A stretch of 33,791 nt of DNA, from the NCBI GenBank assembly GCA_016927185.1, contig JAFGND010000091.1:1-33791 (forward strand), written 5' to 3'. The notes beneath the pieces were generated by a model. That model made no database searches. It was not told the origin of the DNA and saw only the letters and a program-made list of their open reading frames with translations. This document shows positions 261 to 28,632 of the stretch, piece after piece (within the stretch, counting starts at the first letter, position 1; the number at the start of each line of letters is the position of its first letter). This stretch comes from Candidatus Coatesbacteria bacterium. Its GTDB lineage: Bacteria; JAFGND01. A program made the position numbers and the translations under genes.

Positions 261-306
261 TTTGCCTTGACAAAATTGTTTTTGATTTTTAACACAGGAG
301 GAAATA

Positions 307-783
307 ATGAAAGCAACAATAGTAATAGTGATAGCACTAGCTATTATATCAATTGGATGTCAGAATGATATGTCAACAAATCCAGAACAAACCACTTCAG
401 TCAGTAAAACAAAGAATTCAAACATTCCAAATGCAGACAGACTAGGTAATCCTGGCTGATGCGTCTATGGATACGTTACTCCGTCGGAGTACAGTCCTTA
501 TGTTAGAGTTTGGGTGGATGGATATTACTATTCCTTCTACAATTATACAGGTACTACTATGGGAATGCCAAGTAATTATTATTCAATAATGATTGCTGGT
601 GTAGGTGGTCTTCCAGAAGGTGATCACTATAAAAATATTGCATTTAAGTCGTGGAAACAAGGTGATGTCTGGGTTTATGTTTATGGAGAAAGTTCTGAAT
701 ATGAATGGGATCCAGAAAATCCAAATGATGTTCATCGAGATATAGTATTAACTGATCCATCTCCAGAAAAACAAGATGACTAA
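307..783 (+). CDS. Lipoprotein (158 codons) with in-frame TGA at codon 51; candidate selenoprotein (Sec-Cys) or nonsense-interrupted gene
   Basis: AGGAGG RBS at 296-301 and ATG at 307. Signal peptide MKATIVIVIALAIISIG-C18 has a lipobox. The frame continues past TGA 457-459 (…NPG*CVYGYVTPSEYSPYVRVWVDGYY…) into the track ORF 514-783. Confidence 0.75.
466..500 (+). promoter_or_regulatory. Bacterial SECIS-like stem-loop downstream of the in-frame UGA
   Basis: Upper stem TACTCC(477-482)/GGAGTA(486-491), apical loop GUC(483-485), bulged U476, G475-C492 pair, lower stem GGAT(469-472)/GTCC(494-497); the loop G is 24 nt after the UGA. Confidence 0.5.
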
Positions 784-836: not shown

Positions 837-3026
837 ATGTTTATCCTTATTTTATTCTCAATATTGAATACCATTTATCCTGACTATTTAGGTACTGATA
901 ACAATCATGTTAGCATAGACAGGTATTTTAAATATTGGTGTAATGCAGAAAATATTGGAATTATTTATAGTACAAATGCAGGCTCATCATGGGAATTCAT
1001 TCCCTTGAATATTAATCCATACGAAAATACTAATCTGTATGGAATTATCAATTTGGAAACTGGCTATTTGACAGGTGCTTCTATTAATTCATCTTTTATT
1101 TTAAGAACTAATAATCTGAATAGTCAATGGGAAAAAGCATATACTTTTGAAAGAGGGAAAACATGGAGATCTCCAGCAATAAATCCTCGCTTTTTTTTCA
1201 TAGACAATCAGCTAGGTTTTTCATATACTCAATATGATGTGGCAAAAACAACAGATTCAGGAAGATCATGGAAACAAGTCTATCATTTACAGCAAAATGT
1301 CACTTTTCTTGATCTCCAGTTTATAAATGCAGAAAAAGGATGGTTTATAGATACAAACTTTGGATATGCTTCACAAGATACTTTAGTATCAACTACAGAT
1401 GGAGGAGAAACATGGATGAGATTACCTCTTCCTGAAACAGGTTGGGATTTTCAATTCATAGATGAGAATAATGGATTGTTTATTAGCATAGCTTCAAGAA
1501 AAATCTATGAAACCAGTGATGGTGGATATCAATGGAATTATCTTACATCTATACCTGATATTAATTCTCCTAATAATTTAGTTATGAGGAATAAGAAAGA
1601 AGCCTGGTTTACTGCTTTGAATGAGAATGAAGAAATCTTTGTATATCATACTATAGATGGTGGGCATAACTGGGAAGGAACCCAATTGGAAAGAGGTTTT
1701 GGAAGTACACTTTTTGTCTTTGAAGATAGTGTTATTCAAATAAGTCCTTCTTGTGCTTATATAACCAAAGATGGAATTCATTGGCAAAGGAAAAGAAAAG
1801 GGATTTCATTCAATAATTCATCTTATAGTCCAACAGTAAAAGTTTTCAGAAATAATAAATTATCAACCTATAAAATGGATATTGGTTCATATAGTTACTA
1901 TATAAGCACAGATAAGGGATACAACTGGGAAACAGTAAAATGTACATCAAATTATTCTTTAATAGATTCTTTTGAAGGAAATAATGATAATATTTGGATT
2001 GGAGCAATGAATTTCCCATCTGCTTCTTCAGCTATTATCCGTTCAACTGATTCTGGAAATAGCTGGGAAGAATATCAGACACAATGGAAGGATCGCTGCC
2101 ATCTCTGGGGTCTGGAATTCATAGATGATAACAGGGGAATACTCTCATGTGGATATGAAAACAGACCTTCTGCATCTCATCTCTCCTATACTTCTGATTC
2201 AGGAAGAACATGGACAGAAGTAGAAAGACCTGCAAAGCTTAGCTATCCAAAGGACATATTCTTTTTTGAAAATGGAACTGCTTATGTTTTGGATGAGCTG
2301 GGGGTAAGCATTGGAAAAAGCACGGATTATGGACATTCATGGAGTGATTTTCCATTCCCTGAACAGATAAGCAGTTTCAATGCTTTCTTTGCATTGACAC
2401 CAGACACTCTATTCATAGCTTATGATAATCTATTAAAAAGCTTTGATGGAGGCAAGAGCTGGACAATGCTTCCATTGAAAGGGCTTCCATTTGATTCCAT
2501 ATTATTCAAGGACTCACTTCATGGAGCAGCAATATGCAGACATGACAGCAAGTTATGGTTCTATCATACACAGGATGGAGGAGGAACCTGGTCAAAGGAA
2601 GCATTATTCCATGATAACTATCCAAAGATGAGATTGAATAATGGAGTTGGAAGTCAGATAATAATATCAGGAGCAGGTGGTCTTCTCATGTCCTGGGACT
2701 GGGAGACAGGATTTTCTGATAACAGGACAGCAGTTTCCATAATTCCCCCAAAGAAAAGCAGGATACTTAGCATTTATCCAAATCCTGTACTAGACAGAAC
2801 CAGCTCATATATAAAGTATGAACTGTCAAATGATTCTCAGGTAGAGCTGAACTGTTATGATATTACAGGAAGATATATTGGAAAGATCTTTGAAGGTAAC
2901 AGGAAGCAAGGCAGATACATAACAGGAATAAATAACAGACTGAACCTCTCTCATGGAGTATATATAATAGAACTTATTGCAAATCATGAGAGAAGTGATG
3001 TTAAGAAGATTGTGGTGATGAAGTAG
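837..3026 (+). CDS. Secreted BNR/Asp-box (YCF48-like) beta-propeller protein with T9SS-type C-terminal sorting domain
   Basis: Many S/T-x-D-G/S-G-x-T/S-W Asp-box repeats; C-terminal IYPNP…YDITGR…GVYII…KKIVVMK. Start moved from 792 to ATG 837 because GGAGG lies at 827-831 and a hairpin occupies 795-824. Confidence 0.85.
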   Translation: MFILILFSILNTIYPDYLGTDNNHVSIDRYFKYWCNAENIGIIYSTNAGSSWEFIPLNINPYENTNLYGIINLETGYLTGASINSSFILRTNNLNSQWEKAYTFERGKTWRSPAINPRFFFIDNQLGFSYTQYDVAKTTDSGRSWKQVYHLQQNVTFLDLQFINAEKGWFIDTNFGYASQDTLVSTTDGGETWMRLPLPETGWDFQFIDENNGLFISIASRKIYETSDGGYQWNYLTSIPDINSPNNLVMRNKKEAWFTALNENEEIFVYHTIDGGHNWEGTQLERGFGSTLFVFEDSVIQISPSCAYITKDGIHWQRKRKGISFNNSSYSPTVKVFRNNKLSTYKMDIGSYSYYISTDKGYNWETVKCTSNYSLIDSFEGNNDNIWIGAMNFPSASSAIIRSTDSGNSWEEYQTQWKDRCHLWGLEFIDDNRGILSCGYENRPSASHLSYTSDSGRTWTEVERPAKLSYPKDIFFFENGTAYVLDELGVSIGKSTDYGHSWSDFPFPEQISSFNAFFALTPDTLFIAYDNLLKSFDGGKSWTMLPLKGLPFDSILFKDSLHGAAICRHDSKLWFYHTQDGGGTWSKEALFHDNYPKMRLNNGVGSQIIISGAGGLLMSWDWETGFSDNRTAVSIIPPKKSRILSIYPNPVLDRTSSYIKYELSNDSQVELNCYDITGRYIGKIFEGNRKQGRYITGINNRLNLSHGVYIIELIANHERSDVKKIVVMK

Positions 3027-3049: not shown

Positions 3050-4603
3050 ATGAAAACATTTGTAGTATTTATGGTTTTATTGTCTTTTTCTAACCTGATT
3101 TTTTCAGCCCCAGGGGATTTGATATGGAGATACAGGACTGATGCGCGTATCAACTATTCTTCCCCATGCGTTTCAAATGGAGTTGTTTATACTGGAAGTG
3201 ATGATTTTTATCTTTATGCAATAAATTGTTCAGATGGAACTCTCAAATGGAGATATCAAGTTGCTTATTATGTTTATTCCTCCCCTTGTGTCTCAGATGG
3301 GGTTGTCTATATAGGAAGTGAAGACAGCTATCTTTATGCAATAAACTGCCCTGATGGAACTCTCAAATGGAGATATCAGACAGGTTCTTTTGTCAACTCT
3401 TCTCCCTGCACATCTGAAGGAGTTGTCTATGTCGGAAGTGATGATAGTTATCTTTATGCAGTGAATTGCAGTGACGGGACTCTTAAATGGAGGTTCAAGA
3501 CTGATGGTGAAGTCATCTCATCTCCCTGCATTTCAGATGGCGTTGTTTATGTCGGGAGCCGGGATAATTATCTTTATGCAATAAACATCTCAGATTGCAC
3601 TCTCAAATGGAGATATCAAACAGCTGGGATAGTATATTCCTCCCCCCATGTTTATAATGGAGCTGTATATGCAGGGAGTTATGATAACAATATTTATGCA
3701 ATAGAAACTTCAGACGGATCTCTTAAATGGAAGTATGCGACAGGTAATTATGTTCATTCATCTCCCTGTGCTTCTAGCGGGACTATTTATGCTGGAAGCG
3801 GCGATTATTACCTGTATTCAACAGGAGCTTCAGATGGATCCCTTAAATGGAGGTTTTTGACTGAAAATAATGTTGAATCATCTCCTTGTGTCTCGGGAGG
3901 AATTGTCTATGTCGGTAGTAATGACAGTCATCTGTATGCAATAAATTGCTCATCAGGGACTCTTGACTGGAAATATCAAACAGAGAATATTATTAATTCC
4001 TCTCCTTGCATCTCAAATGGAGTTGCTTATGTTGGAAGTAATGACAGTTATCTTTATGCAATTGAAGTGAAAGATACTGTTTTCATAGAAGTGACTTCTC
4101 CCAATGGGGGGGAAGAATGGGATGTCGGTTCTGTTCATGATATAACATGGACATCAGAAAATGTTGATACAGTTTCAGTAAAATATACATCAGATGGAGG
4201 ATCTTTATGGACTGAGATTGTGAAAATGCCAGCTGAAACTGGAAAATACTCATGGAATATACCGGATACTCCTTCAGACAACTGTCTTGTAAGAATAGAT
4301 GACACAAAGGGCAATATAACTGATACAAGTGACAGCACATTTACAATAAAGAGAGTAGGTTTCAAGGATAATAAATTTGCTTCTAGACTGCCAGCCAAAT
4401 CCTTCTCAGTTTCTCCCAACCCCTTCTCCTCCCGCTTATTAATTTCTCTGCCATCATCAGGAGCAATTTATTCCCTTACTGGTCAGCTGATATTGAAAAT
4501 AGATAAAGGCAAGCACTCTCTTGATACAAGCAACTGGAGAGAGGGAGTTTATATAGTGAAGTCAGTGAATGAATGCAAGAGGGTAGTGAAGGTAAATCAC
4601 TAA
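3050..4603 (+). CDS. Secreted PQQ-like (BamB-type) 8-blade beta-propeller + Ig-like (SPNGGE…W) domain + short T9SS-type CTD
   Basis: Signal peptide; 40-aa repeats G-x-LKWRY-x-T…SSPC…GVVYVGS-x-D-x-x-LYAI; IEVTSPNGGEEW motif; SPNPF…IYSLTGQ…WREGVYIVK tail. Confidence 0.88.
   Translation: MKTFVVFMVLLSFSNLIFSAPGDLIWRYRTDARINYSSPCVSNGVVYTGSDDFYLYAINCSDGTLKWRYQVAYYVYSSPCVSDGVVYIGSEDSYLYAINCPDGTLKWRYQTGSFVNSSPCTSEGVVYVGSDDSYLYAVNCSDGTLKWRFKTDGEVISSPCISDGVVYVGSRDNYLYAINISDCTLKWRYQTAGIVYSSPHVYNGAVYAGSYDNNIYAIETSDGSLKWKYATGNYVHSSPCASSGTIYAGSGDYYLYSTGASDGSLKWRFLTENNVESSPCVSGGIVYVGSNDSHLYAINCSSGTLDWKYQTENIINSSPCISNGVAYVGSNDSYLYAIEVKDTVFIEVTSPNGGEEWDVGSVHDITWTSENVDTVSVKYTSDGGSLWTEIVKMPAETGKYSWNIPDTPSDNCLVRIDDTKGNITDTSDSTFTIKRVGFKDNKFASRLPAKSFSVSPNPFSSRLLISLPSSGAIYSLTGQLILKIDKGKHSLDTSNWREGVYIVKSVNECKRVVKVNH
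3113..4066 (+). repeat. Intragenic tandem repeat, 8 units with an exact 120-nt period
   Basis: TCTCAAATGGAG-like word recurs at 3241, 3361, 3481, 3601, 3721, 3841 and 3961. Confidence 0.9.
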
Positions 4604-7166: not shown

Positions 7167-10100
7167 TTACTTAATTAATAGTGCAATTCCCTTTCTCATT
7201 TTTTGTGCTTCTATTTGCTCCAGCAGTACCTTTCTTTGCTTCTTCAGGATTTCCTGTTCCTGCGATTTTGTCCTTAAAATCATGTGATTTATAAGGGCAA
7301 CAGCAGCAGAAAGATTACCCATTCCAATATATGCTTGCATCAATGTCTTCAGAAGAGGTTTGTCAGATTCCAGCACAGGATCCAGATTCTGTTCTTTAGG
7401 ATAGAAGCTTCTGAGAAGAGATACTGCCTCAAGATGATCTCCCATCCTGATATAAGCTTGAGCTGAATAGAGAAGCCTTTCCTTCTGTTTATCGAAATGC
7501 CAGCCAGAAGTCTGAAGATAATTCAAGGCTTCCTTTGGTCTGTTAAGTACAAGAAGTGTCTTTGCCAGTTCAATCCTTATATCATATGATTGCTGTCCTG
7601 TTTCTTTTGCAAGTTTTTCCTTCATTTCAAGCACTTTGGCTTTCATTCCATCAGTAACACTCTGATAAATACTCTTGTATACCTGAGGATCGCTTTCCTC
7701 AAGATCGGGTAGAAGTTCAAGAGCTTCCTTGTTCCTGTTTGTCGATCTATAGAGAGAAACAAGTTCAATCTTGACTTTCTTTTCGTTTTCCTCGTCTCCC
7801 TTTATGTTCTTCAAGGCATCCAGAAGTATTTCCTCTGCTTGCTTGAACTGCTCTCTTCTAATATCCAGTTTTGCGATAGAAATAACGAGATTCAAATTGA
7901 ATTTGGTATCTGTTTTATAAAGCTCTATCAATTTTTCATATACTATATCCTTGAATTCGTTTTCTTCGTAAAGAGGAACGCTGAGTGCTGCTATTTCACT
8001 GTAATTTCTTTCCTTGAAAGCGAGTATGAATTTACAGAAAGCAAGATTCGGTACATATGAAGTCATGAAACTCTGCAAATCGAAAATTTCCTTCCTGAAA
8101 TTAAGGACTTCATTGCTGTCCATAATAAGCAAGTTCTTGATCTTCTCTATGGCATCATCCCATCTTGAAAGCGCCAGCAATAGTTTGATGAAAGCTCTCA
8201 GGATTATTTTATTATCCTTGAATCTTTTCTCCAGTTCAACGAAGCTCTTGAAAATGGTCTTTCCTTCTTCACTCAGGTCCTTTTTAGAGATCTTCTCGAG
8301 AGCCTGGACAGCTGTGTCAGGTTGATCCATTGCAAGAGACAGATCATATAAAAGATAATTGGCAGGAATATTATCAGGAACATTATCAATTATCTCCATG
8401 AGTTTCTGCATCACCTGATTTACAATCTGTGGAGATATCCTGAATGCCTCGCGTAATGCTGTAACTGCCTTGTCATAATCCTTGTCCCTGATATGAAGCA
8501 TTGCCATGTTAAGCTGGATTTGATGATCCCCTTTTATGTTCTGTGACATGTTAATGAGAAGCGGCAGAACCCTTGGACTTAATGATGTTTCAAGATCTAT
8601 AGCTTTCTGCAGATATTCTATTGCTTCCTTGGTTTTGTTTTCAAGCATGAAGAACTTACCCTTCAGGAAATTCAGTCTTCCATTATGAGGGTTATTTGCA
8701 AACAGTGAATCAGCGAATTCCTTCAGCATTGGAGCACTAACTGGCTGCAAATCTATGAATGCTAGAAGCTTTTCCACGCTGTTATCAAGCTGATTTGCAG
8801 AAGCCATGGATTTGGCAAGTTCTATTACCACATCTATCTGGTTCGGATTTTTCTTTTCAATTTCCTCAAGGATCTTGATTTTATCTCCAGTGAAAGATTC
8901 AGGAAGCAACTTGATGGAAGCCAGTGATTTATCCCATTTACCTTCTTTCGCTTCACATAATGCAACAAAAGATCTGACTTCAGGTATCTCTTTCCTTGAA
9001 AGTATATTAAGACCTGTGTCTATGCAGACTTCGTAAATCTCATTCTGGAAATATAGCTTGAGAAGAGATATCTGGGCTTCTTCATTTGCTGGATCTTTGT
9101 GAAGCACAAGATTCAGTATTTCCTTTGCCAATTCGAAATATCCTGGAGTCTCTTTTTCAAGTTTTTTGTACAGGTTCAATACTTTTTCTATCTGACTTCT
9201 GTCAATTGCAAGCCTTACCCACATAAGCCTTAATGGTGTGTTATCAATACCCTTTTGAAGTATGAGATCATCAAGGAATATGAAGATACTTTCTGGAACA
9301 CCTGTGCTTTGAAGTGAAAGTGCTTCTATGAAATTTACAATTTTTTCATAATCTCTTTGCTCAGAATAATCCTGTAATAAAAGCGACTGTACAACTTCAT
9401 TACCTGTGTTCTTCTCGTAGTATTTTTCCAAAAATGGTCTGAATGAAGACATAATTTGTGGTTTTTGAGGAATTATCTGCACTACTTGTCTCAAGAAAGT
9501 CGGTATTTCATCAGGGAATTTCCTGTCCATTGCAAGCAAAACAGGAGGCAATTCCTGGTATTGCTCATTATTCAGTAATAACTGGGCAAGATTTACCATG
9601 ATGCTTCTGCTTGAAGTCCCTGTTTTGACTATATTCTGATATATGATAATAAGCTCCTGAAGAAATGCCTGTGGTACCTTGGAAGGAATTTCACTTAACA
9701 AGTGCTGGGCAAGCTCTGTTTGCTCTAAACTTACATATAGCTGAGATAAAGCAAGCCTTATGGGGAAATTCTCCGGTTGAACCTCAAGCAAATAAGTGAG
9801 TTTGGAGACTATTGCTTCTTCCTGTGATGGGTCTCTCTGAATTGACTGAATAAATAACTTGACACTTTCCTGGGTTTTCCCTGAATTCAAATATGCATCT
9901 GCAAGCATGAACATTGCAGAGCTGTTTTCAGGATCCAGTTTCAGCAATTCATTAAGAACAGGTATTAACTTGTCATTCTGATCAGGAGCCTGATTATGGG
10001 CAATTTCTATCTCCTGAATGGCATTTGTCGCCTGACCCATATGAATGTAGATCTCTGCAAGTGCAAGTCTATAGGTAGGATTTTGTGGATCACTTCTCAG

Positions 10101-22728: not shown

Positions 22729-24430
22729 ATGGCAACTTGCAAGAAAAAATCCGGCATATCTTAAATTGACTGATGACTTGAAGATAACAAGACTGGCTGC
22801 GAGAATTCTCTCAAACAGAGGCTTGAATGACATAGATATGGTGAAGAAGTTTCTGAATCCTGATCTTGATGAAACAAATGATCCATTTATATTGCCAGAT
22901 ATGGAAAAAGCGGTAGCAAGAATTATTCAGGAAAAAGGAACAGGAAAACCGGTCGGGATATTTGGGGATTATGACGTTGATGGACTTGTTTCTATAACAA
23001 TACTGAAGATGTTCCTGAGTAATATTGGAATTGAATCCTTGTTTTATATCCCGAACAGATTCAATGAAGGTTATGGATTATCAAGAGAGGGAATTGATTA
23101 CTTTGTTAAAAATAATGTATCATTGCTTATTACAGTTGACTGCGGTGCTACAGCTCATCGGGAGGTAGATTATGCAAAGTCCCGGAATATGGATGTAATA
23201 GTAACTGATCATCATGAACTTGACGACTGTCTTCCTCCTGCCCTTGCCGTAATAGATCCCAAAAGAAAAGACAGCAAATATTCTTTCAGGGAACTTGCAG
23301 GAGTTGGTGTTGTATACAAACTTATACAAGGGATAGCAAGGAATATGGAGCTTGGACTGAATGACGATGAATTCCTTGAATTTGTTGCTGTTGGGACAAT
23401 TGCAGATATAGTACCTATAATAGATGAGAACAGGATATTTGTCAAATATGGCTTGAACAGGCTTAACAAACTTGAAAATGTTGGTTTGAAGACCTTGATT
23501 AGCTCAACCGGACTTCTGCATAAAAAACTTGATACCATGCAGATTAGCTTTATACTGGCACCAAGGATAAATGCTTGCGGAAGACTTGGTCATGCCTATC
23601 CCGTGCTGGATCTTTTCTTTACAAGAAATGAAGAGGAAGCAATGCTTGTCGCAGAGAAATTGAATCTGGACAATCAAAAAAGGAAAGAAATAGAGAATTA
23701 TATTCTGGCAGAAGCAATAGAGCAGATAAAGAAGATGAAAACTCCCTCCAAAGGGCTTATTGTATCTCAAGAAAACTGGCATAGAGGAGTTATAGGTCTT
23801 GTGGCATCAAAGCTTGTTGAGATGTACAGAAAACCGGCAATTGTTATAAGCATAGAGAATGATATTGCATATGGAAGCGGCAGAAGCTATGGTAATTTCA
23901 ATATTTATTCTGCATTGAAGGAATGCTTTCCTCATTTGATATCTTATGGAGGACATAAATATGCAGTTGGATTATCCTTGAAAACCAATACAATAGAGAA
24001 TTTTAAGAAATCCTTTCTTTCAATTTTGAACAAGGAACTTGTGGTAGATCAGGAAGAAGAGAACATTATAATAGATGAAGAGATATCATTCAATCAGATT
24101 TCACAGAATTTGCTGTTATTTCTTTCGCAGCTTTCACCTTTTGGGGTAGGGAATCCCAAACCGATTTTTTTAACAAGGGGAGTGGAGGTCGTTGCTCCAG
24201 TCAGTATAAATTCCAGGCATCATATGCAGATAAGGATGAGAGAATCAAATACTCTGGTAAATGCAACATGCTATAAATTGAAGAACAAGATAGATATAAT
24301 TCCAAACAAGTATTATGATATATTGTATAATATTGATTTTCAGGAGAAGAAAGGCAAATTCAATTATCAGCTCAATCTGATAGAGGTGCATCAGAACCTT
24401 GAACTGAGACCTGATGATATATGGGAATAA
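22721..24430 (+). CDS. recJ: Single-stranded-DNA-specific exonuclease RecJ
   Basis: GDYDVDG, YIPNRFNEGYG, TVDCG, TDHH, APRINACGRL, GSGRS, GGH, PFGVGNPKP; probable TTG start at 22721 after GGAG. Confidence 0.96.
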   Translation: MNKWQLARKNPAYLKLTDDLKITRLAARILSNRGLNDIDMVKKFLNPDLDETNDPFILPDMEKAVARIIQEKGTGKPVGIFGDYDVDGLVSITILKMFLSNIGIESLFYIPNRFNEGYGLSREGIDYFVKNNVSLLITVDCGATAHREVDYAKSRNMDVIVTDHHELDDCLPPALAVIDPKRKDSKYSFRELAGVGVVYKLIQGIARNMELGLNDDEFLEFVAVGTIADIVPIIDENRIFVKYGLNRLNKLENVGLKTLISSTGLLHKKLDTMQISFILAPRINACGRLGHAYPVLDLFFTRNEEEAMLVAEKLNLDNQKRKEIENYILAEAIEQIKKMKTPSKGLIVSQENWHRGVIGLVASKLVEMYRKPAIVISIENDIAYGSGRSYGNFNIYSALKECFPHLISYGGHKYAVGLSLKTNTIENFKKSFLSILNKELVVDQEEENIIIDEEISFNQISQNLLLFLSQLSPFGVGNPKPIFLTRGVEVVAPVSINSRHHMQIRMRESNTLVNATCYKLKNKIDIIPNKYYDILYNIDFQEKKGKFNYQLNLIEVHQNLELRPDDIWE

Positions 24431-26310
24431 TAATTGGCACTGCAGGTCACATAGATCACGGGAAAACAGCTCTTGTAAAGGCATTGACAGGATACGAAAC
24501 TGACAGACTTGCCGAGGAAAAGGAAAGAGGAATTACAATTGATATTGGATTCGCTTTCTGGAATACAAAAATAGGTGAAATTGCAATTATTGATGTTCCC
24601 GGTCATGAGAAATTCATAAGAAACATGGTTGCAGGAATTACAGGGGTGGACTGGGTTCTCATGACAATAGCAGCAGATGAAGGGATAATGCCACAGACAC
24701 TGGAACATCTTGATATAATAGAATTACTGGGGATTAAAGGCGGGATTATAGCTCTTACCAAATCTGATCTGGTTGAACCTGAATGGATAGAGCTTATAAA
24801 GGATGATATAAAAAATCGATTCAGAGGTACATGTCTGGAGAACCAGCCTGTAATTCCTGTATCCAGCTTGACTGGTGAGGGACTGGAAGAGCTTAGAGAG
24901 GCAATTGAAAACCAGCTCTCCTTCCTCAAGAAGAGGATTTTCAGTAAACAGGTAAGACTTCATATAGACAGGGAATTCATAATGGAAGGTTATGGGCAGG
25001 TTATAACCGGAACACTGATTAGCGGCACAGTCAGAAAAGGTAACATATTGTCATTGATCCCCGGGGATCAGAAGGTGAGGGTGAGAGGCATTCAGCACAG
25101 GAATAAAAGCGTGGATGAGATTTCTGCTGTTGAAAGGACATCCTTGAATCTCACTTCAGAAAGAAAACTCAAAATCCAGAGAGGATCAATTATTTCAAGT
25201 GAGAACTGGCTGACAGAAACAAGAAAGATGGCAGTAGAGATAAAAGTCCTGAAAACTGAAAAAGCTTCAATAAGACATCTACAGCGCGTCAGGATACATA
25301 TCGGGACAGCTGAGATAATAGCAAGGTTGAGGCTTGTTGAAAGCAAGGAGATAGCACCTGGCGGAAAGGGTCTTGCTTATCTGATGCTTGAGGAACTGAC
25401 TGCAGCTATTGGTGGAGACAGGTTTATAGTAAGATTATTCTCACCACTGAGAACCATAGGTGGTGGAACTGTTCTTGATCCCAATCCAAAAGCATTAAGG
25501 AAGAAAATCAGGCTGGATTATTTCAGTTCTCTTTCTGAACGAAATCCGGAAAAATTCATAAATCTTTACTTGTCTGATATTGGAGTAATAAAACAGAAGG
25601 ACATTAGAAGGTCCTTACTTATAATAACTGAAGAAGAATTGCAGAAAGCCTTGGATAAAATGATAGAGGATAGCAGGATTATCACAATAATGCTTGAAGA
25701 TTCTTCAAAAGCTTACATTTCTGCAGCATTTATCAAGGAAACCGTTTCCTTGATAAATGAAGCTCTAGCTAAAAGGAGCGAAATAAATCCACTTAATCCT
25801 GAAATTTCGAGGAAAGAGCTTTCTGATTTAATAAAGATTGATTTGGAAATCCTCTCTGCAATATTAAATCTTCGCAAGGAGAATTATATTGTTTCTGATG
25901 GCTTTATCAAGCTTCTATCAAGCACAACAGCAATTGATGAAAACCAGGAAGGTATAATAAATGAAGTTTTGAAGATTTTTCAGGAAAGAGGATTATCAAC
26001 CCCACTTGTTTCCGAACTTGAGGAAAAATATCCAGATATAAACAATATCTTAAAATATCTCGTTAAAAAGAATCTTCTGATCAAGATATCATCCAGCTAC
26101 TTCATTACTGATGAAGTATTCGAAAAGACACAGAAAGATATAATCAGACTTCTTAATGAAAAACCGAGAACGTTAAGTGAACTGAAAGAATTCTTCAATA
26201 TTACGCGAAAATACTTGCTTCCATTGATTGAGTTTTTTGATATGAAGGGAATAACAAAGCGAGACGGTGATTTAAGGATAAAAGGTAGATCTTTTGATAA
26301 GTATTCATGA
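24421..26310 (+). CDS. selB: Selenocysteine-specific translation elongation factor
   Basis: [53 protein letters not shown]-terminal winged-helix [13 protein letters not shown]…KRDGDLR. Confidence 0.96.
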
Positions 26311-26332: not shown

Positions 26333-26968
26333 TTGTCATATTGGGCTTTCCTGGCAGAAGGATTCACTCTTGGTATTTCCCTTGGAATGACTTGTCTCGC
26401 TACATGCGGTCCAGTTTATCTCCCTTACATAATGAGTTCAAGGAATGAGGCTGCAAAATCCTTGTTAATTGTCCTGTATATAACACTTGGCAGATTTGTC
26501 TCATATCTTTTCTTCGGGCTTATAGCAGGCATAATCGGTAAGCATATATCTGAGATTTCAAGAACATCATTCACTTCAATTGCATATATAGGGCTTTCAT
26601 TACTCCTTATATATCAGGCAATAATCAAGGGTAGAATCAGGCATGAAAAATGTGAAATAAACAGGTGGCAAAAGGGATTGATGAATCCTTTTCTATTAGG
26701 TGTTCTTACAGGGATAAATTTCTGTCCGGCTTTTCTTATAGCTCTCACGAGATTATTTTACATCTCTGGAATAATTGGCAGTGTCTTGCTGTTTTTATGA
26801 TTTTTTCTGGGAACATCTCTTTTCATAATCCCTCTTTCACTTGGTGGATTGTTTACAAAGTGGGATAAAATGAGAGAAATTGCAAGAATTGTTGCAATTT
26901 TTATTGGAATTTGGTATATTGGTCAGGGATTATGGTTAGTATTAGAGATGATTAAAAAAGTGAAATAA
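26333..26968 (+). CDS. DsbD_2 / TauE-SafE-like membrane protein (211 codons) interrupted by in-frame TGA at codon 156; readthrough or pseudogene
   Basis: TCLATCGP, GRFVSY, LGVLTGINFCP motifs. After TGA 26798-26800 the frame continues FFLGTSLFIIPL…IARIVAIFIGIWYIGQG (two more TM helices) to TAA 26966-26968. Confidence 0.78.
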
Positions 26969-27342: not shown

Positions 27343-28632
27343 CTATTTGATTTTTATTATCTTTTGTGAGAAGTTTCCGCATTTGACAATATAAACTGCT
27401 GGTAACCAGGTTTTCGTATTTATCTCATTTTTTCCCTTCCTGACTTCTCCGAGTCTCCTTCCCTCTATACTATATATATAACCATCTGAAGGTGAGGTGA
27501 TTGTGAGTCTGTCTTTGAAGGGATTTGGCTTGACAGAAAATTCTTCTTTTGGTATAAATCTTGATGTGATCTTTTTTGAATTGAAGCCTACTCTTCCTGC
27601 CTTAACGCAGTAAATGTATCCATCAAGTGCGCAGAAATAAACATTACCTTTGGCAACGGATGGAGAAGAGAATATCTGGCTTCCTGCATTGAAGGTCCAG
27701 ATTGGTGATCCAGTTACTGTATCAATTGCATATAAATACCCATCATAACCACCTATATAAAGGATATCTTCACTTACGCAACCTGATGAATTGACTTCAG
27801 AGCCTGTCTGGTATTTCCAGTTAAGAGTTGCTGTTTTTGCCCCTACAGAATAAATTCCTCCATTTGCAGATCCAAAGAAAATATTGCCTCCTCCCTGAAC
27901 TGGTGTCGAATATATCCTGCTTCCTGCGTTATATTTCATCTTGATTGAGCCGATTGCTTCATCAAGGAAATATAGATTTCCGTCATCGCAACCAACATAA
28001 ATCATGCCATCATAGATTAAAGGAGAGGAGAATATCAGATAACCTAATTTTGTTTTCCATCTGAGATATCCGCTGTCTCTTTCCAGTGCATAAATATATT
28101 CATCATAGCTTCCGAAAATTACGCATGATGAATTGATAGCTGGTGATGTGAATACTTCCCAGCCTGTCTGATATGACCAGAGCTTGGTTCCATTGACTGT
28201 ACTGAGAGCGTAAAAACTATGATCACTGCTTCCAAAATAAACAGCATTGCTTTTTGCTACTGGAGAAGACCATATCTGACCATTTGTCTTGAAACTCCAC
28301 TGGAGTCTTCCTCTTCCCTTTGTCAGGATATAGAAATATGTGTCATTTGAACCAAAATATACGAAAGTGTCTGAGGTATCTGAAACATATGGTGATGAAT
28401 AAACTGAATCACCAGTTTTATATCTCCAGATGAAGCTTCCTGTCCTGGCATTCAGGGCATATACATATGTGCTGTTTGATCCAAAATATACTCTTGTATC
28501 TGATTGATCAGAGACAGATGGAGAGGAATAGCTTCCTGCCCCTGTTGAATATTTCCATACAAGTTCACCAGCATCAGCGAATATGCATGAAAAAGAAAAA
28601 ATAAGAATGCCTATAATCAGAATTTTACTCAT
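27343..28632 (-). CDS. Secreted PQQ-like beta-propeller protein with short T9SS-type CTD
   Basis: AGGAGG RBS, signal peptide, 8 W-x-Y/F-x-TG…SSP…VYFGS repeats, VKPNPF…IYSIEGR…VYIVK…KIIKIK. Confidence 0.88.
   Translation of the reverse strand: MSKILIIGILIFSFSCIFADAGELVWKYSTGAGSYSSPSVSDQSDTRVYFGSNSTYVYALNARTGSFIWRYKTGDSVYSSPYVSDTSDTFVYFGSNDTYFYILTKGRGRLQWSFKTNGQIWSSPVAKSNAVYFGSSDHSFYALSTVNGTKLWSYQTGWEVFTSPAINSSCVIFGSYDEYIYALERDSGYLRWKTKLGYLIFSSPLIYDGMIYVGCDDGNLYFLDEAIGSIKMKYNAGSRIYSTPVQGGGNIFFGSANGGIYSVGAKTATLNWKYQTGSEVNSSGCVSEDILYIGGYDGYLYAIDTVTGSPIWTFNAGSQIFSSPSVAKGNVYFCALDGYIYCVKAGRVGFNSKKITSRFIPKEEFSVKPNPFKDRLTITSPSDGYIYSIEGRRLGEVRKGKNEINTKTWLPAVYIVKCGNFSQKIIKIK

Follow-up and report, generated by a model that had tools for sequence, protein, structure and literature searches.

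The window analysed here, the whole of a 33,791-nucleotide contig (JAFGND010000091.1) of an uncultured Candidatus Coatesbacteria bacterium from sediment, carries near its start an interrupted reading frame that probably encodes a selenoprotein. The contig (C22) belongs to an assembly of 2.99 Mb in 109 contigs with 36% G+C and 93% completeness (genome G000). At 307–783 (+), a single frame of 158 codons runs to the stop codon TAA at 781–783 and is broken by one in-frame TGA at 457–459 (codon 51), which is followed directly by the cysteine codon TGC at 460–462 (codon 52). A Shine–Dalgarno site, AGGAGG at 296–301 (+), lies 5 nt before the ATG at 307. A hairpin resembling a selenocysteine insertion sequence (SECIS) occupies 469–497 (+), and selB, encoding the selenocysteine-specific elongation factor with its C-terminal winged helix, was identified by Pfam in the same window at 24421–26310 (+). 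We consider it probable that 307–783 encodes a lipoprotein precursor of 158 residues with selenocysteine (Sec) inserted at UGA-51.

One reading frame across an in-frame TGA

The first 18 codons (307–360) specify Lys at position 2, a hydrophobic run and then Ile-Ser-Ile-Gly-Cys18 (Cys codon at 358–360), which on inspection form a lipoprotein signal peptide with a lipobox. Substrates of Lgt and LspA share such a lipobox with an invariant Cys. Given a signal peptide that ends in a lipobox with Cys18, the product of 307–783 is predicted to be a bacterial lipoprotein. Residues 19–50 (361–456, +) form a polar, low-complexity tether that was modelled without secondary structure at low confidence, and the remainder (463–780, +) encodes a beta-rich domain abundant in Tyr, Trp and Gly. 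The preliminary description of this DNA had placed a ribosome-binding site, signal peptide, lipobox and downstream open reading frame (ORF) in one frame, interrupted by TGA at codon 51 just before a Cys codon and split by gene callers; all of this was confirmed.

Under translation table 11, the region yields a 50-residue ORF (307–459) and an 89-residue ORF (GTG 514 to 783), and public protein sets hold fragments of 50 and 74 residues, both 100% identical to the window. These annotations would fit an account with two products, in which a 50-residue lipopeptide ends at a true TGA stop, a second protein is translated separately and the hairpin serves, for example, coupling or mRNA stability. However, when the upstream bases were checked, no Shine–Dalgarno site was found before GTG 514, ATG 559 or ATG 565, and a separately translated downstream product would be without a signal peptide. 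An AGGAGG-type site is also present before the ATG of the next gene at 837.

Homology across the TGA argues further against two products. Among 1.84 billion representative proteins searched with HMMER, the sole real homologue was a 141-residue lipoprotein (P0005, E 3.1e-07); the other matches were the window's own fragments, a repeat protein and a borderline hit. P0005 has an equal layout, with a lipobox and Cys18, and its alignment spans residues 3–124, straight over the TGA. It includes residues 52–69, ahead of any restart codon, and the best-conserved block includes residues 53–73, which follow the TGA and precede the earliest potential restart codon. Because P0005 aligns across the TGA and no usable start follows the TGA, 307–783 is, on this comparison of sequences, one gene and not two. 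We therefore regard separate translation of two products as extremely improbable. The publicly annotated 50- and 74-residue fragments would accordingly need to be merged into one gene.

The family appears to be very small. A word-indexed protein search over near lengths gave no further homologue, one over a shorter length range returned only the window's own two fragments, and one with a two-sequence profile returned only P0005. No related locus was found in the genome contigs or metagenome contigs searched, and metagenome contigs contained 0 matches to a nucleotide pattern of the codon's surroundings in which N stood for the TGA. Among 61 genomes (G000 and 60 others, which include no phylum mates of G000), the candidate protein matched G000 itself and gave one weak hit elsewhere (E 3.8e-4) that has stops inside. 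No RNA sequencing run with the locus was listed.

The predicted product contains 2 Cys in 157 residues, in a genome whose overall Cys fraction is 1.19%. One is the lipidated Cys18; the other, Cys52, lies next to the UGA and is the only further cysteine of the mature protein. Vicinal CU and UC pairs are a described selenoprotein motif, as set out in the accessible part of a preprint (Haft and Gwadz 2022 preprint). The failure to recognise any known selenoprotein family, reported in the preliminary description, was borne out by the profile searches: Pfam gave 0 families for the candidate or P0005 at E up to 10, and NCBIfam likewise matched neither protein, with E up to 0.1 allowed for the candidate. 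Two AlphaFold models of the candidate were unreliable (predicted local distance difference test, pLDDT, 34.2 and 32.5), yet strand-rich. The ESM Atlas model of P0005 had a predicted template modelling score (pTM) of 0.64, and its nearest structural neighbours were CarboxypepD_reg-like, with template modelling (TM) scores of 0.50–0.59 from about residue 42 to the end. From the predicted strands and the model of the homologue, the domain at 463–780 is probably a CarboxypepD_reg-like sandwich. As a lead rather than a demonstration, Sec51-Cys52 would start the first strand of a small beta-sandwich, just past the tether of ~30 residues. The earlier guess of a small beta-sandwich thus has lead-level support from the P0005 model and none from Pfam.

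Genes for decoding UGA as Sec are present in this genome. The presence of selB in the window, noted earlier, was upheld by Pfam matches to PF00009 (GTP_EFTU, 2.1e-35), PF25461 (SelB beta-barrel, 2.4e-14) and PF09107 (SelB winged-helix, 1.7e-12); the closest SelB relative found was only 38% identical. The check for selA, selC and selD that had been proposed returned all three functions. A tRNA-Sec with anticodon TCA scored 68.3 bits against a cut-off of 47, and selD carries its own in-frame TGA. selA scored 337.8 bits against a cut-off of 267.9 and lies at 7332–8483 (−) of contig C83 (locus L011, 1459–2610, −), directly downstream of a YraN-like ORF; its 383 residues cover profile positions 73–451 of 455 only, without the N-terminal domain. 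A genome-wide reassignment of TGA was rejected, as TGA ends 559 of 2065 long ORFs.

The hairpin downstream of the TGA and the SECIS elements of the genome

The hairpin at 469–497 (+) has an upper stem of five pairs, 478–482 with 486–490, that closes the loop G483 U484 C485. Two alternatives exist below this stem: U477 pairs with A491, or U477 is bulged and U476–A491 and G475–C492 are paired (475–476 with 491–492). An outer stem joins 469–472 with 494–497. The loop starts 23 nt past the UGA, with the loop G at 24 nt, and the free energy is −6.1 kcal/mol for 475–492 and −8.4 kcal/mol for 469–497. The GUC apical loop and bulged U that had been proposed downstream of the TGA are therefore present, at 475–492. 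According to the accessible part of a 2026 review (PMC13188914), bacterial SECIS (bSECIS) elements have a loop of 3–9 nt, an upper stem of 4–16 bp, a G in the first two loop positions, a spacing of 16–37 nt from the UGA and a minimum free energy of at most −7.5 kcal/mol. With its GUC loop, 5–6 pairs, 23-nt spacing and −8.4 kcal/mol for 469–497, the candidate lies within these limits as they are given there.

The codons that form the hairpin are rare ones. The stem requires ACU-CCG-UCG-GAG, and in this genome 8.4% of Pro codons are CCG and 3.7% of Ser codons are TCG; among the 1993 Pro-Ser pairs of long ORFs, 3 are written CCG-TCG. When residues 52–73 were resampled synonymously by genome usage, the hairpin appeared in 24 of 200,000 recodings (0.012%), and the peptide therefore does not explain the hairpin. 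We read the rare-codon hairpin as a likely sign of selection acting on the RNA. Of the 12 genomic copies of the 7-nt core CCGTCGG, 2 form strong hairpins with an in-frame TGA 18–24 nt upstream, namely, the candidate and a WD40-repeat gene on contig C29.

Comparison with the SECIS elements of known selenoprotein genes in the same genome, which the preliminary description had suggested, showed a clear resemblance. In selD, fdhA and hdrA, a stem of 6–8 pairs carries a GUC-containing loop with its G at 18, 20 and 29 nt past the UGA, respectively; the candidate has 6 pairs and 24 nt. A strict hairpin class was then defined by a loop [N]GUC[N], a stem of six or more pairs with no fewer than five of them Watson–Crick, and a G 16–31 nt after the TGA. 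The candidate, selD, fdhA and hdrA all belong to it. This class was set after the candidate had been seen, and figures based on it, including its occurrence after 124 of 142,046 TGA triplets on both strands (0.087%), are somewhat optimistic. At the stops of long ORFs, the strict hairpin followed 2 of 461 TGA codons, compared with 1 of 825 TAA and 0 of 453 TAG codons. We assume that the two TGA cases are the upstream portions of fdhA and of the C29 gene.

At seven of the 124 sites, the joined ORF exceeds every competing ORF in length: fdhA, selD, hdrA, a DUF1858 protein, the C29 WD40 gene, the candidate and one case resembling a 5′ untranslated region. Four of the seven belong to known selenoprotein families. 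Independently of the hairpin, 43 genomic TGAs have same-frame flanking ORFs on both sides (each at least 30 residues) that are the longest at their place, and the candidate TGA is among them. Two of the 43, those of fdhA and the candidate, have the strict hairpin, against about 0.037 expected by chance. A scan of TGA-joined ORFs recovered selD (SCAGU), formate dehydrogenase (HCARLU) and an HdrA-like flavoprotein (CSIU), as well as the DUF1858 protein (CYGU) and three exported thioredoxin-fold proteins; the DUF1858 CxxU family is listed as a selenoprotein in the accessible part of the 2026 review (PMC13188914). A codon-usage score of ORF pairs failed to separate TGA from TAA or TAG junctions and was dropped as evidence. 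These results indicate that an organism-specific SECIS signature, taken from selD, fdhA and hdrA, allows orphan selenoprotein genes to be singled out cleanly.

If the UGA is decoded in this way, the ribosome would reach 457–459 while the mRNA downstream folds into the 469–497 hairpin. The window's SelB would bind the GUC loop and bulged U through its C-terminal winged helix and bring in Sec-tRNA(Sec), in the manner known from bacterial SECIS elements of the fdhF type. The product would then be exported and presumably lipidated at Cys18, and would hold the Sec51-Cys52 pair on its ~30-residue polar tether at the start of the small beta-sandwich. The pair would most likely act as a surface-exposed selenenylsulfide or selenolate–thiolate site, for redox exchange or for binding soft metals, metalloids or sulfur species. 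Of the exported Sec-Cys lipoprotein that had been proposed at the outset, the single gene, the leader, the hairpin and the machinery held up; from these parts we infer the Sec insertion itself.

Variants in other metagenomes and the weighing of alternatives

The locus was compared with other sequencing runs on the basis of assembled contigs. Run X1, probably the source, gave 1201 identical bases with 0 differences in Logan's independent assembly, at a word depth of 9. Contigs from run X3 and from two biogas-fermenter runs, X2 and X7, were 80–97% alike over 302–513/527 and then continued with unlike letters. Read in the window's frame, the loose ends of these contigs still encode homologous sequence, and one X2 contig, which keeps the GUC loop, has a codon-aligned 3-nt deletion at 493. 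Because the frame continues through the loose ends, the 3-nt deletion is codon-aligned and the encoded sequence is homologous, the stretch from the TGA to the first restart codon is judged to evolve as coding sequence. In other metagenomes, at least three variants of the gene have leader, tether and the first ~20 codons past the TGA in common and then diverge into different homologous domains. This pattern suggests a small, mosaic family of lipoproteins in which the 5′ module is conserved and the domain varies.

Of the differences close by, those with the best support are 484 T>G and 485 C>A, which 5 contigs from 3 runs carry. Together they turn Ser60 into Glu and the GUC loop into GGA without disturbing the stem, and the variant folds alike at −8.4 kcal/mol. 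A GGA loop still fits the G[G/U]N pattern published in the accessible part of the 2026 review (PMC13188914).

At the TGA itself, no change was seen at 457–459 among the 40 differences listed out of 146, which does not by itself prove the identity of the codon in these runs. In the per-run tallies of X3 and X7, every T>G, G>C and G>T is already accounted for; therefore, GGA, TCA and TTA are excluded at the codon there. The suggestion that the TGA arose from GGA is thus unsupported, with no T>G at the codon in the contigs of these two runs. TGG to TGA, the other part of the nonsense or error alternative raised in the preliminary description, is compatible with the tallies of X2, X3 and X7.

These data also bear on an assembly or sequencing error, in which the true codon is a sense codon and the TGA is a consensus artefact at about 9x depth. 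The only identical sequence came from X1, which is probably the source itself and has a word depth of 9, and the comparison used contigs and not raw reads. However, Logan's independent assembly of that run reproduced all 1201 bases, the codon lies outside any homopolymer run, and an error would not account for a rare-codon hairpin at SECIS distance. We judge such an error to be highly unlikely.

In-frame TGAs of another kind occur elsewhere in the assembly. Directly after selB, a gene for a DsbD_2-family membrane protein (26333–26968, +) contains an in-frame TGA at 26798–26800. Reading through it extends the Pfam match from positions 3–156 (56 bits) to 3–199 of 199 (72.3 bits), and no hairpin was found at SECIS distance from this TGA; it is therefore likely to be an error or a nonsense codon, and not one for Sec. 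On contig C38 (15912, −), a PQQ-repeat beta-propeller gene has an in-frame TGA where all sister repeats have Gly, and this looks like a GGA-to-TGA nonsense change.

The main rival to Sec insertion is a pseudogene or strain-level nonsense allele, in which the TGA derives from, for example, TGG, TGT/TGC or CGA/AGA, the hairpin and the adjacent Cys are coincidental, and either a 50-residue lipopeptide or nothing is made. Several observations weigh against selenocysteine at codon 51, and many of them would suit such an allele. P0005 has Ser-Gln at the positions of Sec51-Cys52 and no cysteine outside its lipobox, so that in the only comparison available no Cys is aligned to the UGA, and no Cys homologue is known; a Sec/Cys pairing is found in nearly all known selenoproteins, according to the accessible part of the 2026 review (PMC13188914). 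The family is tiny, with one homologue in 1.84 billion representatives. In-frame TGAs that probably do not encode Sec and have no SECIS-like hairpin occur in the assembly (the DsbD_2 gene and the C38 PQQ gene), and the only run with the exact sequence is X1, probably its source. The codons compatible with the tallies of X3 and X7 are TGA, TGT, TGG, CGA and AGA, plus TGC in X7.

The remaining points of this kind concern the RNA and the machinery. The loop is GGA instead of GUC, with the U lost, in the contigs of 5 relatives. The 81-nt region is no better folded than its shuffles (z = +0.79, with 155 of 200 shuffles folding at least as well), and the hairpin is small, at −6.1 kcal/mol alone; with this contiguous stem only, the energy falls short of the published bSECIS rule. 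When the published rules were simplified to a contiguous stem, 40 of 6000 random TGAs passed and the candidate failed, and this version was dropped as support. At E up to 10, Rfam reported no SECIS, its two matches being uup and MAT2A_B at chance level. A search of the genome, which is 93% complete, revealed no PF12390, the N-terminal domain of SelA. To these must be added the optimistic definition of the strict hairpin class described above.

Nevertheless, a nonsense allele would leave several features to coincidence. A hairpin of this type comes after 0.087% of TGAs, synonymous recoding produced it in 0.012% of cases, about 0.037 chance cases were expected among the 43 comparable TGAs, the sole Cys of the mature protein besides the lipidated one adjoins the TGA, and relatives keep both frame and stem downstream of it. 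Non-Cys homologues together with a hairpin that is not kept had been named in the preliminary description as grounds for giving up the selenoprotein, and here the outcome is divided: P0005 has Ser, and near relatives keep the stem with a GGA instead of a GUC loop. On balance, we consider a pseudogene or nonsense allele unlikely and selenocysteine at UGA-51 the probable reading.

If UGA-51 is decoded as Sec, 307–783 would represent a selenoprotein family without known relatives or an oxidoreductase fold, lipid-anchored outside the cytoplasm. The Sec-Cys pair would then have evolved from Ser-Gln and not from a Cys ancestor. Such a de novo acquisition of Sec is missed by design in searches built on Cys/Sec pairs.

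Other TGA-containing genes and likeness to known systems

Downstream of the frame, a terminator-like hairpin of 13 pairs lies just past the stop codon at 795–824 (1 found against 0.3 expected in shuffles). The tool's score for it refers to the minus strand; in the plus orientation, TTTT and then the ribosome-binding site of the next gene come after it. The neighbouring genes at 837–3026, 3050–4603 and 27343–28632 (−) encode BNR/sortilin-like and PQQ-type beta-propeller proteins with C-terminal sorting domains of the type IX secretion system (T9SS).

Several other genes of the genome look like selenoprotein genes. A WD40-repeat protein with a T9SS sorting domain is encoded on contig C29 (locus L104, 298–1584, −) with one in-frame TGA at 3170–3172 (−). 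At the equivalent position, the preceding repeat has TGT (Cys). An 8-pair GUC hairpin lies 18 nt past the TGA and has a 9-nt core in common with the candidate's hairpin. An exported WD40 protein with Cys-Ser-Sec and a 9-pair GUUU hairpin (C38:16702, −; L102) and an exported beta-helix protein with Cys-Gly-Gly-Sec and a 7-pair GUU hairpin (C68:81658, −; L101) likewise look like products of selenoprotein genes. WD40 and beta-helix folds are not listed as selenoproteins in the accessible part of the 2026 review (PMC13188914). That part also makes no mention of lipoprotein, WD40 or propeller, and the review's supplementary tables may list further families. No paper was found on selenoproteins of Cloacimonadota, and, judged by titles and abstract beginnings, none of the papers listed on signal-peptide selenoproteins in metagenome-assembled genomes appeared relevant.

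Members of more familiar groups were also observed. These comprise a probable Omp28-related selenoprotein with UPYC (C70:8938, +; L098; E 3.7e-17, below the family cut-off), probable redoxin/thioredoxin-fold selenoproteins with UPSC and UNSC and AGUUA-type loops (C70:9837, +, and C47:5078, −; L099), and a probable DUF1858 CxxU selenoprotein (C40:6084, −; L100). Exactly three genomic ORFs (C47:4754, C68:81472 and C70:9568) end in a shared tail of Thr/Ser-Trp-Gly-Gly/Ala-Ile-Lys-Lys/Arg-Leu plus a few residues, and all three are exported, TGA-containing selenoprotein candidates. The shared C-terminal tail may be a sorting signal.

Tentatively, the genome might encode an enlarged exported selenoproteome with Sec in folds not known as selenoproteins. 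Candidates are, among others, the lipoprotein described here, the T9SS-sorted WD40 proteins of C29 and C38 and the beta-helix protein of C68, all of them with a GU-loop hairpin at SECIS distance; we consider this possible, though doubtful. In that case, selenols on the cell surface would take part in redox reactions outside the cell, or in reactions of sulfur, metals or metalloids, in anoxic sediment, and the three exported candidates with the shared tail would form a dedicated sorting class.

Among exported selenoproteins, the Omp28-related selenoprotein (NF045500) and the secreted thioredoxin-fold and redoxin selenoproteins resemble the candidate in bearing a signal peptide. However, they have UxxC motifs and AGUUA-type loops, whereas the candidate has a UC dyad, a GUC loop and no thioredoxin fold. 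In mammalian thioredoxin reductase, the C-terminal Gly-Cys-Sec-Gly places vicinal Cys and Sec on a flexible segment, where they can form a selenenylsulfide. The candidate differs from it in the order Sec-Cys, in being an unrelated, bacterial extracytoplasmic protein, and in having no evident flavoprotein partner.

The lipoproteins SaoX and SaoC of the SAO system, along with other selenoproteins that have a CU or UC dipeptide, are also comparable. As described in the accessible part of a preprint, in which a metal- or organometal-binding role is set out as a proposal (Haft and Gwadz 2022 preprint), they are, like the candidate, predicted exported lipoproteins with Sec beside Cys that databases truncate at the UGA. 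By contrast, the motif of the candidate stands at residues 51–52, at the start of its domain, and not in a C-terminal CC/CU as in SaoC or within a substrate-binding-protein fold as in SaoX. The nine-gene SAO neighbourhood is absent around the candidate, whose neighbours are BNR/PQQ T9SS-type beta-propeller proteins, and the candidate matches no NCBIfam model. In its fold, the candidate is strand-rich and thus resembles the CarboxypepD_reg-like (transthyretin-like) domains PF13620 and PF13715, to which the Atlas model of P0005 is similar; it differs from them in that neither it nor P0005 has a Pfam match and its own models have a pLDDT of 32–34.

In decoding, the candidate is closest to the fdhF-type SECIS/SelB system. 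As in the SECIS elements of Escherichia coli fdhF and Moorella fdhA, with their characteristic loop and bulge, its hairpin lies inside the coding region after the UGA, at 23 nt, and has a small loop with G then U and, some pairs beneath this loop, a bulged U on the 5′ side. The upper stem of the candidate is short in comparison (5–6 pairs), its loop is perhaps only 3 nt, and near relatives have a GGA loop. The decoding mechanism would be the known bacterial one, and the protein family would be new.

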